Source: Sulfurimonas sp.
GTDB taxonomy: Bacteria > Campylobacterota > Campylobacteria > Campylobacterales > Sulfurimonadaceae
Length of the DNA: 64,000 bases
Direction: 5' to 3'
Assembly: GCA_034006465.1 (NCBI GenBank)
Contig: JAVEST010000001.1
Coordinates: 6,116 to 70,115 of the forward strand
Position 1 is the stretch's first letter, and each line of letters starts with the position of its first letter. The position numbers and the translations under genes are program-made. Shown piece after piece: positions 43,882 through 49,400 of the stretch. The notes beneath the pieces were generated by a model. It was given only the letters and a program-made list of their open reading frames with translations. It searched no databases and had not been told where the DNA came from.

Positions 43882-44376
43882 TTACTCTTTTATCCCATCA
43901 AGAGTTTTAAAAAGTAACTCAGATAGTGTCGCTCTCTCTTTAGCATTGACATGACTAAACATCTTCTCTTCTAGCTCTATAACATCTCTAAGAGACTTCT
44001 CAACTATCTGCTTGCCACTCTTTGAAAGTCTCACAAGCTTACTTCTTTTGTCTTCTTTGTTATCAAGCCTCTTTATAAAGCCTTTTACTTCTAGTTTTTT
44101 TAAAACTTTTGTCATTCCACCAGAAGAGAAAAAGAGTCTTTCATATAACTTTGTAGGAGTTAATGTGTGCTTTTCATCTACAGATGAGTGAAGTGATGAG
44201 AGAACATCAAGCTCACTAGTTGAGATAGAGTATTTATCCTCCAAAAGAGTAGCGATGTGGGCTAAAATCTTTTCAGAGATGAGAATAAGAGGTAGAGTTA
44301 CATAGCCTATATTACTGCCGTTTGAGATATTTTTGTCTTTTTTGCTTAAGTGTAAGATTAGCTCATTTGAATTCAT
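43882..44376 (-). CDS. MarR-family transcriptional regulator
   Basis: ELDVLSSL, LTPTKL, SSGGMTKVLKKLE.KGFIKR, DKRSKLVRL winged helix; start set at the second ATG (44376). Confidence 0.92.
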   Translation of the reverse strand: MNSNELILHLSKKDKNISNGSNIGYVTLPLILISEKILAHIATLLEDKYSISTSELDVLSSLHSSVDEKHTLTPTKLYERLFFSSGGMTKVLKKLEVKGFIKRLDNKEDKRSKLVRLSKSGKQIVEKSLRDVIELEEKMFSHVNAKERATLSELLFKTLDGIKE

Positions 44377-44383
44377 AAAGTGC

Positions 44384-44418
44384 ATTATACTCAGATAAGA
44401 CTTTTAAGTAAATGCTTA
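44384..44418 (-). promoter_or_regulatory. marR promoter (-10 TATAAT) and palindromic operator candidate
   Basis: TATAAT at 44389-44384, 7 nt before ATG 44376; taagta-aa-tgctta near-palindrome at 44405-44418. Confidence 0.5.
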
Positions 44419-44432
44419 CGCAAATATCGGTA

Positions 44433-44855
44433 TTAATCGCTCTTTTGTGCTAGTTGTTTTACGACTGCATCTATAGAATTTTTATACCTTTTATTGTCTT
44501 TTATTTTATCAAAACTGCAGCTTAACATAGAGTAGATAAAAAACTTCGATTTTTTATCATATAGGCTTTTTAACATATAGATGATTGTTTTTGGCGAGAT
44601 ATGGTGGCTAAGGTTAAGATTGTCTTGCTCAGTTAAGGAGCAGGCTAGGGCGTAGTGGTTTTTTTCATCATAAGAAGCATCTATAAAGATTATTTCATTG
44701 GCATCTAAGAGTTGTAAAACTACTTCTGGAGTGAGTTGATGCAAAGATATGAGTTTTGTATTTTCCAAACCTAGCTTTTGGAGTTTTTTTATAGCATCAA
44801 CTCCAAAAGCATCTTCGCCTCTTAGCTCATTTCCATAGCCTATGATTACCCTCAT
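44433..44855 (-). CDS. hoxW: Hydrogenase maturation endopeptidase (HoxW-like)
   Basis: IGYGNELRGEDAFG, HQLTPE, FIDAS, SHH; directly after the large subunit gene. Confidence 0.88.
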   Translation of the reverse strand: MRVIIGYGNELRGEDAFGVDAIKKLQKLGLENTKLISLHQLTPEVVLQLLDANEIIFIDASYDEKNHYALACSLTEQDNLNLSHHISPKTIIYMLKSLYDKKSKFFIYSMLSCSFDKIKDNKRYKNSIDAVVKQLAQKSD

Positions 44856-46285
44856 TAGCTTCTCTCAAACACCTTTATTATCTTTTTATTATGGTCTCTT
44901 ACTTCTACTTTTGAAGATACAATCCCTAGTGCATGAGTAGAACAGCTAAGACAAGGGTCAAAACATCTAATCACTGCTTCAACTCTGTTTAGTGCACCAT
45001 CTGTTATGTTTTTTGGATCTACAAATCTTTGAGCAACTTGCTTAACCCCAGCGTTCATTGCTAAGTTGTTATTTCCAGTTGCAATTATAAGGTTAACTCC
45101 CGTGATGATGCCATCTTTTGTTACATGGTACTCATGAAAGAGAGTCCCTCTAGGAGCTTCTGAACACCCAACGCCTCTTTCATAACTGACTGTTGAAGTT
45201 GACCTTACATTATCACTCATCGTCTCATCACACTTTAAAAGTTCTTCTATCTTCTCGATAGCATAGATCATCTCGATAAGTCTTGCATAGTGGTAGTAAA
45301 AGGTGTTAAGAACAGGTTTTCCACCATTTAGAGCTTTGAACTTTATAAGTTCTTTGTCGGCTAAAGGAGTTCCACATGTTTTAGCGATGTTTACTCTAGC
45401 TAATGCACCTACACGGTACATCCCTTGTGGATATCCCATAGGTTTGTAGTATGGAGATTTTAGGTAGCTAAAATCTTCAACCGCTTCGCCTATAAACTCT
45501 TTATAGTCCCTAGGTTCAATCTTATCTTTTAAAATATTTCCTTCGCTGTCCATAAAACAAAGTTTTCCATTATAGTGCTCAAGCGTACCCTCATCATTTG
45601 ATATTGCCATAAAAAGTGATGGAAATGCACCTAAATAGTCTATCTCTTCTTGAAATTTATGTAGGTTTTCTCTAAAAAATTCTAAAGCACTCTGTGCTAT
45701 TTTTAACATATCTGGAACTTGTTCTAAGATAGCCTCTTTTGTGGACTCTTCTATCTTATGTGAGGCTCCGCCTGGGATGATTCCTGTAGGATGAATCCTT
45801 TTGCCTGCTAAATCTTCTATGATTTTTTGCCCAAACGCTCTTAGGTTTATACCATCTCTTGCCATTTGTGGATGTGTCTGCATCATCTTAAAGATATTTC
45901 TATCCTCTTTTGGAGCATCAAAGCCGTAGATAAAATCAGGGCTTGAGAGATGATAAAAGTTTAGTGTATGAGACTGAAGCATCTGAGCAAGATTTACGAT
46001 TTTTCTTATATTTACACCTGCTTTTGGAGGAGTGACGCCAAGTATCTCATCTATGGCTTTTGTAGCTGAGACCACATGACTCACTGGACAGATGCCACAT
46101 GTTCTAGCTGTTAGAGCTGGCATCTCTGTGTAGGGCCTACCCTCACAAAATTTCTCAAAACCACGGTACTGAGTCACATGAATCTTCGCATCTTCAACCT
46201 TACCGCTCTCATCTATATCTATAGTTATTTTTGCATGACCTTCAATTCTTGTTACTGGGTCTATGATTATTGTCTTTTTTTGCAT
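44855..46285 (-). CDS. hoxH: [NiFe]-hydrogenase large subunit, group 3d-type
   Basis: DPVTRIEGH, RGFEKF, RTCGICPVSH (L1), EAPRGTLFH, DPCLSCSTH (L2) plus a cleavable C-terminal tail. Confidence 0.95.
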   Translation of the reverse strand: MQKKTIIIDPVTRIEGHAKITIDIDESGKVEDAKIHVTQYRGFEKFCEGRPYTEMPALTARTCGICPVSHVVSATKAIDEILGVTPPKAGVNIRKIVNLAQMLQSHTLNFYHLSSPDFIYGFDAPKEDRNIFKMMQTHPQMARDGINLRAFGQKIIEDLAGKRIHPTGIIPGGASHKIEESTKEAILEQVPDMLKIAQSALEFFRENLHKFQEEIDYLGAFPSLFMAISNDEGTLEHYNGKLCFMDSEGNILKDKIEPRDYKEFIGEAVEDFSYLKSPYYKPMGYPQGMYRVGALARVNIAKTCGTPLADKELIKFKALNGGKPVLNTFYYHYARLIEMIYAIEKIEELLKCDETMSDNVRSTSTVSYERGVGCSEAPRGTLFHEYHVTKDGIITGVNLIIATGNNNLAMNAGVKQVAQRFVDPKNITDGALNRVEAVIRCFDPCLSCSTHALGIVSSKVEVRDHNKKIIKVFERS

Positions 46286-46287
46286 AA

Positions 46288-46821
46288 TTATTTTCCAAAC
46301 CTCGTTAGTTCATGTATTTTTATCTCTCTGCCTTCTATGAGAGCTTTAAGCATCTCATAGATTGCATCTGCTGGGGTAGGGCAACCTGGCAAAAAGTAGT
46401 CCACTTTTACAGCCTCATGTAGAGGTATAACCATGTCAAGGAGTGTTGGCACTACTTTTGATGGATACTCATGGTTTAAATCAGCAAGATCAAAATAGCC
46501 CTTTTGCAAAATCGCCTCACTACCATAGAGATTTTTCATAGCAGAAACATTTCCTGTAATCGCGCAATCCCCTAGAGCTAATATTAGCTTAGAGTTTTTT
46601 CTTATCTTTTTTATCATCTTTATGTCGTGGTCGGTGCTTAGAGCTCCTTCGACTATAGTTAAGTCAACATTCTCTGGAAACTCTTTCATATCAACATAGG
46701 GGCTGTAAACAACATCCACATACTCGGCTAACTCGATAAGTCTCTCATCCATATCTAAAAAAGACATATGACAACCAGAACAGCCATCAAGCCAGATGGT
46801 ACCTAGGCGTATTTTTTTCAT
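46288..46821 (-). CDS. hoxY: [NiFe]-hydrogenase small subunit
   Basis: WLDGCSGCHMSFLD, GDCAITGNV, LPGCPT; short single-cluster form. Confidence 0.93.
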   Translation of the reverse strand: MKKIRLGTIWLDGCSGCHMSFLDMDERLIELAEYVDVVYSPYVDMKEFPENVDLTIVEGALSTDHDIKMIKKIRKNSKLILALGDCAITGNVSAMKNLYGSEAILQKGYFDLADLNHEYPSKVVPTLLDMVIPLHEAVKVDYFLPGCPTPADAIYEMLKALIEGREIKIHELTRFGK

Positions 46822-47537
46822 TTTTGACCCCTGTTTTTAACAAGCTCTGTAACAATCTCTCGTTTTTTAATAATCTCTTCTTCACTTATATCTTTTTCAT
46901 AAAGCGCACCAGTAGGGCAGACATATACACACTTTCCACAACTCGTACAGCTTGTGGAATCAGCCCATGGTTCATCCATATCGTGGATTACTCTAGTGCC
47001 CAAACCTCTACCAAAAAGGTCAAGTGCGTGAGCTCCTTCTATCTCATCACAAACTCTGATACATCTCGTACACAAGATACATTTGTTTGGATCATTTACA
47101 AAGTTTTTATGTGAAGCATCTATCTCAAATCTTTGATTGAGATATGGGGTAAAACTGTGGCTAAGTTCAAGTTCTACGGATTTACTTTGAAGCTGGCAAT
47201 CCCCATTAACAACACAAGTACTACATGTATGATAACGCTCAGAAAACATCATGGAGAGAATCATCTCTCTTGCAGCTTTTATCTTAGGTGAGGAGGTGGT
47301 TACTTCCATTCCTTCTTTTATCTTTGCAGTACATGAGGGTATAGGTTCATGGCGTCCATCTATCTCGACTATGCACATTCTACATGAACCAACATCGCTA
47401 AGACCTCTTAAGTGACATAGTGTAGGAATATCGATACCGTTATCACGAGCGACCTCAAGTATGGTCTGGTTTGACTGCCCCGTGACGCAGATGCCGTCTA
47501 TCTTAAAATTTTTAACTCTTACTTTTGCTTTAATCAT
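46818..47537 (-). CDS. hoxU: Diaphorase Fe-S subunit
   Basis: IPTLCH..GSCRMC..C (2Fe-2S), HTCSTC...[26 protein letters not shown]. Confidence 0.93.
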
Positions 47538-48888
47538 TTTTTATCCCTGCTAGATATTCGTCTTCAAAGTATTTTATAGTGCTTAAAACTGGATTTGGGG
47601 CTGTTTGTCCAAGTCCACAAAGACTCGTACTCTTTACAACCTCACACATTTTTTTCAAAAGATCAAAATCTTGATGTGATGCCTCTTTTGCTATAAACTT
47701 ATCAAGTAGTCCTGTTAGCTGCGTAGTTCCAACGCGACACGGTGTACATTTCCCACATGATTCATTTGCACAAAAGTCCATAAAAAATCGTGCAATTTCT
47801 ACCATGTTAGAGCTATCGTCCATTACAATAAGACCACCACTTCCCATAATAGAATCTACCTCTTTTAATGATTCGTAATCTACTTTTAAGTCCAAGAGAT
47901 GCTCTGGAATACATCCTCCACTAGGGCCACCTGATTGGATGGCTTTAAATTTTCTTCCATCTTCAACCCCTCCGCCAATATCATAAACAAGCTCTCTTAG
48001 AGTCGTTCCCATCGGTACTTCAACAAGCCCAGTGTTTTTTATAAGTCCTGAGAGTGCAAAAACTTTTGTTCCACTTGAGTTTTCTGTTCCAATGGACTTA
48101 AACCACTCGCCGCCATTTTTGATGATTGGAGCTATATTTGCAAAGGTTTCAACATTGTTTAAAATAGTAGGCATTCCCCATAAACCATGATCACTTAGAT
48201 GCGGTGGCTTTTGTCTAGGATGTCCACGTCCACCTTCAATAGAAGCTATAAGTGCAGTTCCCTCTCCACACACAAATGCACCAGCACCTAGTCTTATCTC
48301 GATACTAAAGCCAAAGCCACTTTGAGCAATGTTTGCTCCTAAGATGCCAAGTCTAGTAGCCTGTTTTATTGCTCTTGTTAATCTTTTTACGGCTACTGGA
48401 TATTCGGCTCTAATATATATATAGCCTTTATCAGCACCACAAGCAAAACCTGCAATCGCCATCCCCTCTAGGACTCTGTGAGGATCACTCTCCATAACAG
48501 CTCTATCCATAAAAGCACCAGGATCGCCCTCATCGCCGTTACAGATGATGTATTTCTGCTCGCTTTGAACTTTTGAGACGCTCTCCCATTTTAGGCCCGC
48601 AGGATAGCCCCCGCCACCACGACCGCGAAGCCCACTTGTCTTTAACTCTTCAATGACATCTTTTGGACTCATTTCATCTAAGGCTTTAAAGAGTGACATA
48701 TAACCGCCATGTGCTATATAATCCTCAATATCTTCAGGATCGATGATTCCCTCATTTTCAAGAACAATTCTCTTTTGCTTTGTGTAAAAATCAGAGGTCA
48801 TATCGATAGTTATCTCTCTTGGATTAGTAGCGTTTTGAGCCTTTTTTTTATCTGCTAGCTCTTGAAGCTCTTCTATAGATGTAATCAT
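47530..48888 (-). CDS. hoxF: Diaphorase flavin subunit (NuoF/HoxF-like), short form
   Basis: [54 protein letters not shown]. Confidence 0.93.
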
Positions 48889-49400
48889 TTTATATCCTCC
48901 TCAATGCCGCAAAGCGGATTTTCAAGCGAAACATTTGCTTTTATATGCTCGTCGAAAACTATGACAGGAGCAATAGAACAGGTACCAACACATCTAGCAG
49001 TTAAGAGTGATAAAGCTTCATCTGAAGTTGTCTCTCCTGCTTTGATGCCATATCTCTGCTCAATTTTTTGAAGAATTTTTTCAGAGCCTTTTATATAACA
49101 GGCAGTCCCTGAGCAGACGACTATATTATGTCTGCCTTTTGGTTTTAATCTAAAGTTGCTGTAAAAAGTAGCAACTCCATAAACTTTAGAATAAGGCAAT
49201 TTTAGCCGTTTTGCAACGAACTTAAGAGTATCTATACCTAGATAGCCAAAAATTCCCTGAGCACTGTGGAGGACTTCTAGAAGAGAATCCTTTTCATAAC
49301 CGAGCTTTTTTATAGCTTTTTCAAGTGCACTGTATCTGTCGTCAGTAACTGTTGACATTCTAGACTCCGATTTAAATATATTTTTAGTATTATAAGTCAT
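48885..49400 (-). CDS. hoxE: [2Fe-2S] diaphorase subunit (NuoE/HoxE-like)
   Basis: [34 protein letters not shown]. Confidence 0.92.

Follow-up and report, generated by a model that had tools for sequence, protein, structure and literature searches.

The closest described relatives of the enzyme considered here are the group 3d hydrogenase HoxEFUYH of Synechocystis sp. PCC 6803 and, among solved structures, the HydB/BfuB subunits of HydABC, HydABCSL and NfnABC. In the Synechocystis HoxEFU complex, HoxE, HoxF and HoxU each hold one [2Fe-2S] cluster, with midpoint potentials in the complex of -419 mV for F2 in HoxF and below -525 mV for E1 in HoxE, and earlier studies considered in the same work suggest that HoxE is needed for reactivity with ferredoxin (PMC11647496). 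A 2026 cryo-electron microscopy preprint reports that HoxEFUYH both bifurcates and confurcates, places F2 at 19 Å from flavin mononucleotide (FMN) and within its reach only via E1, locates both surface clusters in electropositive patches, and assigns E1 and F2 to a low-potential ferredoxin branch running FMN-E1-F2 (10.64898/2026.06.25.734504). Here we describe a hoxF gene whose product lacks the domain that carries F2, the cluster called B2 in the HydB/Bfu enzymes. The gene lies in a stretch of 64,000 nucleotides from Sulfurimonas sp. (GenBank assembly GCA_034006465.1, contig JAVEST010000001.1, positions 6,116 to 70,115 of the forward strand), the whole of which is referred to as the window and supplies the coordinates used below.

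An in-frame loss of about 87 codons took out the whole N-terminal thioredoxin-like [2Fe-2S] domain of this HoxF and joined its first helix directly to the linker ahead of the NuoF-like core. The gene and the parts of it that bear on the deletion are as follows.

47530-48888, minus strand: hoxF, short form, 452 amino acids (aa), the diaphorase subunit binding FMN and nicotinamide adenine dinucleotide (phosphate), NAD(P), without the N-terminal [2Fe-2S] domain.
48838-48888, minus strand: N-terminal helix (residues 1-17) that survives the deletion and corresponds by homology to helix 1 of HydB and of the long HoxF forms (alignment; AlphaFold 2 model).
48837-48838, minus strand: deletion junction, residues 17/18, placed to within a few residues by alignment, where about 87 codons of the long forms are gone.
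48790-48837, minus strand: linker (residues 18-33), likewise kept, the homologue of the linker that follows the cluster domain of long forms (alignment).
48130-48642, minus strand: Complex1_51K domain binding FMN and NAD(P)H, residues 83-253, including the AFM motif (GAFMDR) and GEGT (Pfam).
48256-48267, minus strand: GEGT motif, HoxF residues 208-211 (motif census).
47548-47799, minus strand: NADH_4Fe-4S domain, residues 364-447, for the F1/N3-type [4Fe-4S] cluster (Pfam).

The translation contains no Cys in residues 1-40 and none ahead of the VLEN motif (motif block at residues 34-45), and its Pfam content is Complex1_51K, SLBB and NADH_4Fe-4S without 2Fe-2S_thioredx (PF01257), in agreement with an earlier note on this DNA, which had described a HoxF of 452 aa devoid of Cys before the motif at residue 34. 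Upstream hoxF coding sequence has not been overlooked, because the start ATG overlaps the stop codon of hoxE (ATGA, 48885-48888).

The 120 best database matches to the window HoxF, which served as the comparison set, fall into two length classes, one of 23 proteins with 443-452 aa and one of 97 proteins with 535-543 aa. Short-class members come from Sulfurimonas sp. and from the cultured Sulfurimonas hongkongensis (91% identity to the window HoxF), and long-class members from Sulfurimonas, Ca. S. baltica, Halarcobacter and Arcobacteraceae (72-83% identity). The short forms have an alignment gap at columns 18-105, about 87 residues, and both flanks align, namely residues 1-17 and the linker ...QN...D....F(F/Y)TKQK(K/R)IVLEN. 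The residues absent from the short forms hold the motifs VCxGxxC and VGCNGLC, that is, the CX4C...CX3C pattern of NuoE-type thioredoxin-like ferredoxins, and a linker Cys kept by most of the aligned long forms is Ile in the window HoxF. In the long form P0013 the lost stretch comprises residues 18-104, which form a strand-helix-strand-strand-strand-helix fold with a PF01257 match at residues 25-97 that scores below the curated Pfam cut-off. The linker of the 443- and 444-aa forms is shorter still by 9 aa, a secondary change.

The structure models lead to the same view of the junction. The AlphaFold 2 model of the window HoxF (predicted local distance difference test score, pLDDT, 94; predicted template modelling score 0.93) has a single helix at residues 5-21 (pLDDT 95) that runs straight into the linker, whereas in the AlphaFold model of P0013 (pLDDT 92.8) a helix at residues 5-20 is followed by a strand, helices, three strands and a helix (residues 24-106), and this strand/helix fold is the only difference between the short and long models. 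Superposition of the long-form model on the B subunits of bifurcating HydABC and NfnABC covers 520-560 columns and gives template modelling scores of 0.92-0.96. The short model aligns along all of its 452 residues with residues 1 to 559 of T. maritima HydB at a root mean square deviation of 1.6, so that the first helix of the short form sits at the position of the first helix of HydB, and complex I NuoF aligns with the short model only from residue 32-37 onward. Alignment and models together bear out the proposal of the earlier note that both flanks were kept while the cluster domain was excised in frame, and its account of cyanobacterial HoxF as a helix, a Cys-ligated domain and PFFxxQ, in that order, holds in four cyanobacterial loci (L039, L040, L042 and L049).

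The deletion is a single derived event in an ancestor of one Sulfurimonas sub-lineage, because the short forms nest among long forms and because HoxF is long in all other hoxEFUYH operons examined. A maximum-likelihood tree of this single protein (FastTree) was restricted to the shared core to keep the deletion from shaping it; its outgroups, 12 Hox-type sequences from other phyla, are not monophyletic in the tree, which is rooted on one of them. The 25 short forms in the tree are monophyletic with a support of 0.97 and lie ten nodes deep, each successive sister group being long-form. Among 80 species-representative loci spanning Campylobacterota, Cyanobacteria, Chloroflexota, Acidobacteriota, Bacteroidota, Verrucomicrobiota and Desulfobacterota, every hoxEFUYH operon outside the short clade has a HoxF open reading frame (ORF) of at least 533 aa, lengths here being longest-ORF estimates, and the long hoxF nearly always has hoxE directly upstream. 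The possibility that the short form is the common type in HoxE-containing operons, which the earlier note had listed as a refutation, thus finds no support among the operons examined. The N-terminal Cys pattern is present wherever the anchor motif of the regular expression matched, which covers most of the 80 loci, rows without an anchor match being uninformative and not negative. Likewise, of the best 150 cluster representatives from 1.8 billion proteins, those with more than 50% identity nearly all begin 85-130 or more residues ahead of the window HoxF; the exceptions among the 150 are mostly short or N-terminally incomplete sequences, and the full-length proteins without the extension are of NuoF type (42-47% identity). 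Three 444-aa forms (P0012, P0015 and P0016) combine an N-terminus that resembles the 443-aa clade with a core that groups with the 452-aa forms, and this mixed placement may reflect recombination between short-form lineages or an error of the tree.

Short HoxF is a clade trait found in at least 13 species. Hox-type HoxF occurs in 31 of 301 Sulfurimonadaceae species genomes, 18 with the long and 13 with the short form, and all 13 short-form species belong to the genus of the window. Seven further short-form species have the complete hoxEFUYHW operon, and independent assemblies contain identical or near-identical proteins of 452 aa, the architecture being present also in a cultured isolate and a closed chromosome. 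When the window gene is compared with 11 other short-form species, the ratio of nonsynonymous to synonymous substitution rates (dN/dS) of hoxF is 0.036-0.060, and dS in these comparisons ranges from 0.7 to more than 2, so that synonymous sites are near saturation; between short forms and their closest long forms they are saturated. The low dN/dS at near-saturated synonymous sites indicates that the deletion is old and that hoxF has been strongly constrained since. Members of the short clade are on average 70% identical in the retained helix, 40% in the linker and 89% in the core.

No other gene in the window genome supplies the lost domain, within an assembly of 2.01 Mb in 185 contigs that is 94% complete. 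The single PF01257 match in this genome is hoxE and the single Complex1_51K match is hoxF, which are thus its sole NuoE- and NuoF-type proteins, and a tblastn search of the genome with ten long-form N-terminal domains returned only the remnant in hoxF itself and a weak similarity to HoxE. At none of 12 short-form loci does the operon contain an extra gene. The genome scan and the tblastn search therefore dispose of the separate nearby gene that the earlier note had named as a possible objection. About 12 other genomes in the family sample contain a separate NuoF-like gene of about 40% identity, in several of which the match includes an in-frame TAA.

HoxE is retained, as had been claimed, and its cluster ligands are retained too: all four Cys are kept in every short-form operon examined. 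Relaxation of HoxE was considered and rejected, since its identity is below that of the HoxF core in short-short and short-long pairs alike, without a clade-specific signal. Clade-diagnostic substitutions occupy 4 of 157 columns in HoxE versus 15 of 1323 in HoxF, HoxU, HoxY and HoxH together. The C-terminal third of HoxE holds three of the four (residues 129, 147 and 153 of the 171-aa ORF; L to A, A to I and P to I), and two of these are located 6 and 12 residues past the second Cys pair. The C-terminal substitutions may be an adaptation to the loss of the neighboring domain; a compensatory change is not claimed, as the counts are too small and shared ancestry confounds them.

A further suggestion, that the deletion co-evolved with the GEGT change in the nucleotide pocket, did not hold up. 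In the motif census 17 of 23 short forms and 96 of 97 long forms have GEAT, and GEGT is found in a single long form and in the other six short forms, which are the immediate relatives of the window. GEAT is the motif of every other HoxF examined from Campylobacterota, short or long, so that the second Glu is missing across the whole lineage. Outside this phylum Hox-type HoxF has GEET at the same position, and HydB-like proteins of Oscillospiraceae have GEGS. By this distribution the second Glu was lost before the deletion, by a change of Glu to Ala, and Ala changed to Gly later in a subclade. The deletion and GEGT are thus not coupled, because the loss of Glu predates the one and Gly arose after it.

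Comparison with known systems points to a protein of mixed character. Three flavin-site signatures separate bifurcating from non-bifurcating subunits, namely AFM, Trp or Phe but not Tyr, and GGPSG (Losey et al., PMC7311640; criteria drawn also from the 2026 preprint), and the window HoxF retains all three in their bifurcating-type form, as GAFMDR, GGPSG(G) and GLWG, the last with the Trp of the bifurcating A. mobile HydB (7t2r_B). The best solved relatives are the HydB/BfuB subunits (PDB 7t2r, 7q4v, 7p5h, 8a6t and 9bov; E value 4e-177, about 57-60% identity, Z scores 51-57), with which the window HoxF has the N-terminal helix and the flavin-site signatures in common, whereas both the N-terminal B2 [2Fe-2S] domain and the C-terminal 2x[4Fe-4S] ferredoxin domain of those subunits are absent; the alignment stops at residue 528 of the 597-aa 7t2r_B, and absence of the C-terminal domain is normal for Hox-type HoxF. 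With NuoF/Nqo1 the window HoxF has an identical Pfam architecture (Complex1_51K, SLBB and NADH_4Fe-4S, no extra Fe-S domains), FMN and one [4Fe-4S] cluster, and a NuoE-type [2Fe-2S] partner. Orthology and gene context place it elsewhere: it is 40-47% identical to NuoF-type proteins versus 74-83% to long HoxF, its neighbors are hoxE and hoxU, and NuoF lacks the extra N-terminal helix and has T/S-x-K in place of AFM, Tyr in place of Trp/Phe, and no GGPSG. The window HoxF thus combines a NuoF-type cluster complement with a bifurcating-type flavin site, and the short forms have converged on the NuoEF architecture while keeping a HydB-type first helix.

Like its Synechocystis counterpart, the window enzyme has the same five subunits in order together with HoxW, a [2Fe-2S] cluster in HoxE, and a HoxF with FMN, the C-terminal [4Fe-4S] cluster, AFM and GGPSG and no C-terminal ferredoxin domain; it differs from cyanobacterial HoxF (about 60% identity) in lacking the F2 domain of about 87 aa and in having GEGT instead of GEET. 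The long HoxF of Sulfurimonas, Arcobacteraceae and other Campylobacterota (535-543 aa), whose 74-83% identity applies to at least 435 shared residues, has the same operon, first helix and linker and a GEAT-type pocket without the second Glu, and differs in that a thioredoxin-like domain with the CX4C...CX3C ligands separates helix 1 from the linker. The ferredoxin-independent hydrogenase flavoproteins (PMC7311640) provide a precedent for fewer Fe-S domains, but they form a separate clade with non-bifurcating flavin residues, whereas the short HoxF of Sulfurimonas arose recently from a bifurcating-type sequence and keeps the flavin residues of that type. NCBI names for short-form HoxF are NuoF or hypothetical, and literature searches on Hox of Sulfurimonas and Campylobacterota, on the HoxF N-terminal domain, and on Bfu variants yielded no account of the short form.

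In the window, hoxF belongs to six abutting minus-strand genes that constitute an intact hoxE-F-U-Y-H-W operon. Its other members are listed here.

48885-49400, minus strand: hoxE, NuoE/HydC-like [2Fe-2S] subunit (PF01257, 5.5e-43), longest ORF 171 aa, with CX4C...CX3C ligands at residues 96-141; the true start is likely Met15, giving 48885-49358 and 157 aa as in relatives.
46818-47537, minus strand: hoxU, 239 aa, with [2Fe-2S] and [4Fe-4S] clusters (Pfam Fer2_4, NADH-G_4Fe-4S_3, Fer4_Nqo3).
46288-46821, minus strand: hoxY, hydrogenase small subunit, 177 aa (PF01058).
44855-46285, minus strand: hoxH, [NiFe] large subunit, 476 aa, with the Ni ligand motifs RTCGIC and DPCLSC (PF00374).
44433-44855, minus strand: hoxW-like maturation endopeptidase, 140 aa, without a Pfam match and recognized by its conserved position, phmmer homologues occupying the same place in at least 30 Hox operons.

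By descent and operon the enzyme is still of group 3d, as a variant without the HoxF [2Fe-2S] cluster. The gene set and order are those of group 3d HoxEFUYH, comprising a NuoE/F/G-like diaphorase with small and large subunits of group 3, and the same order is present in at least 30 related loci; HoxH has the RxCGxC and DPCxxC motifs; HoxE has the four-Cys [2Fe-2S] site and the PF01257 match; and HoxF is nested in the long-form HoxF of Campylobacterota. The exception is the N-terminal cluster of HoxF, in place of which there is the 87-aa gap and no PF01257 match. Directly downstream of hoxW lies a gene for a MarR-family regulator (43882-44385, minus strand), and contig C3 of the same genome encodes two further [NiFe] large subunits. 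In a few genomes, short-form and long-form alike, inserted genes split hoxEFU from hoxYH, with inserts of about 5 kb of opposite-strand genes in G136 (L004, chromosome OW818672.1), about 11 kb in G218 (L104), and about 52 kb with an inversion in G087 (L102). A role of hoxEFU as a stand-alone diaphorase was rejected, because every split genome still has hoxH, at a distance of 7-52 kb, and a long-form genome shows the split too. In G132 (L101:3086-4956) genes for a ParE-family toxin and a Fic/DOC protein (SoFic-like) are inserted after hoxU and ahead of hoxY in a short-form operon that is intact in other respects, and L096 and L100 have gaps of 1.2-3 kb between hoxU and hoxY.

The old deletion, its single origin and the constraint on hoxF are shown by the results above, and what they mean for function is inferred. 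We give about an even chance to the best overall explanation, an enzyme that still works and in which E1, now the end of the side branch, itself serves ferredoxin or flavodoxin. Judged from the conservation described above, the enzyme is probably still a working soluble H2:NAD(P)+ oxidoreductase. Its main path, from the NiFe site through HoxY, the HoxU clusters, the F1 [4Fe-4S] cluster and FMN to NAD(P), would be untouched by the deletion, and in the low-potential side branch FMN-E1-F2-ferredoxin the last remaining station would be E1, the cluster of HoxE. Exposed by loss of the F2 domain, E1 may exchange electrons directly with soluble ferredoxin or flavodoxin, a proposal that we rate as marginally more probable than not. 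If E1 is as low in potential as in Synechocystis, it would be a poor acceptor from ferredoxin and a good donor to it; a bias toward the H2-oxidizing, ferredoxin-reducing direction could be expected because the potential of E1 in Synechocystis is very low (below -525 mV). That direction would suit an autotroph that uses the reductive tricarboxylic acid (rTCA) cycle to fix CO2, as Sulfurimonas in general do. Altered ferredoxin coupling after loss of F2, as the earlier note had anticipated, would also fit published work on F2.

Several points weigh against this reading. Complex I keeps an off-pathway N1a cluster in NuoE, and retention of HoxE is thus no proof of a role with ferredoxin. The flavin-site signatures may have been kept only for want of counter-selection, and the Synechocystis bifurcation model rests on a preprint. 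In models of HydABC and Bfu, moreover, B2 (= F2) stands between C1 (= E1) and the ferredoxin path, so that its loss could simply cut ferredoxin off, and characterized homologues without B2-B5 neither bifurcate nor react with ferredoxin (PMC9304861). Such considerations lead to the strongest rival, which we hold to be a real possibility though not the probable one: loss of F2 cut the ferredoxin branch and left a plain, non-bifurcating NAD(P)(H)-linked hydrogenase, in which the HoxE cluster is an N1a-like off-pathway buffer or a structural element and HoxEF copies the NuoEF module of complex I. The cofactors of short HoxF, FMN and one [4Fe-4S], are those of NuoF/Nqo1 and of non-bifurcating B-subunit homologues (PMC9304861); its domain architecture is identical to that of NuoF, structures of which align at Z scores of about 49-50; and S. 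wolfei, S. aciditrophicus and an anaerobic fungus have hydrogenases that combine NuoE with a short NuoF and operate independently of ferredoxin (PMC7311640; PMC13556243). Against a severed branch stand the retention of all three bifurcating flavin signatures despite saturation of synonymous sites since the deletion, and the presence of HoxE and its ligands in every short-form operon examined. At the other extreme, HoxEFUYH without F2 might be a true bifurcating or confurcating hydrogenase, with the HoxE cluster as its sole low-potential station and as the direct docking site of ferredoxin or flavodoxin. We regard this as unlikely, about one step down from the severed branch; if true, the enzyme would contain the smallest known bifurcating NuoEF-type module (FMN, one [4Fe-4S] and one [2Fe-2S]), and B2/F2, to which current models give a place in the ferredoxin path, would be dispensable.

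The remaining alternatives concern the deletion itself. Gene decay or loss of function in the short hoxF, or an artefact of assembly or annotation, might be suggested by the fragmented assembly and by the relatives in which hoxEFU lies apart from hoxYH, but this explanation is effectively refuted by the intact frame, by a dN/dS of 0.04-0.06 over the 11 other short-form species, by recurrence of the architecture in independent assemblies, a cultured isolate and a closed chromosome, by the pLDDT of 94, and by the presence of hoxH in each split case, and we give it next to no credence. Scarcely any more can be given to the idea that the short form is ancestral and NuoF-like, the domain having been gained later by the long form. 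Complex I NuoF does indeed lack the domain, yet the tree contradicts this order of events, with short forms ten nodes inside long forms; the N-terminus lies about 85-130 or more residues further out in every outgroup Hox-type HoxF and in almost all of the 150 nearest representatives; and the short forms keep the HydB-type first helix, which is absent in NuoF, true NuoF being 40-47% identical. Supply of the lost [2Fe-2S] domain in trans, by a small protein encoded elsewhere or too diverged to recognize, is very improbable: about 6% of the genome is unseen and small thioredoxin-like ferredoxins are hard to detect, but the PF01257 scan finds hoxE only, tblastn finds the hoxF remnant and the weak similarity to HoxE, and the operons at 12 short-form loci contain no additional gene.

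Loss and gain of Fe-S domains are already familiar in this superfamily, in NuoF, FdsB and S. wolfei HydB, and short HoxF is not a new kind of system. Labels such as NuoF, and the assumption that cofactors are uniform across group 3d, would nevertheless miss the cluster difference. Where ferredoxin docks on Hox hydrogenases, and what E1 and F2 each do, are explicit questions in a 2024 Journal of Biological Chemistry study and in the 2026 cryo-electron microscopy preprint. Long-standing constraint together with the deletion makes the short-form clade an F2 deletion mutant made by nature and long maintained, with long-form relatives of about 82% identity in the same genus and with S. hongkongensis in culture, so that a comparison of short and long forms offers a direct test of whether ferredoxin coupling and bifurcation require F2. 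The finding bears on how H2-oxidizing, CO2-fixing Sulfurimonas obtain low-potential reductant.

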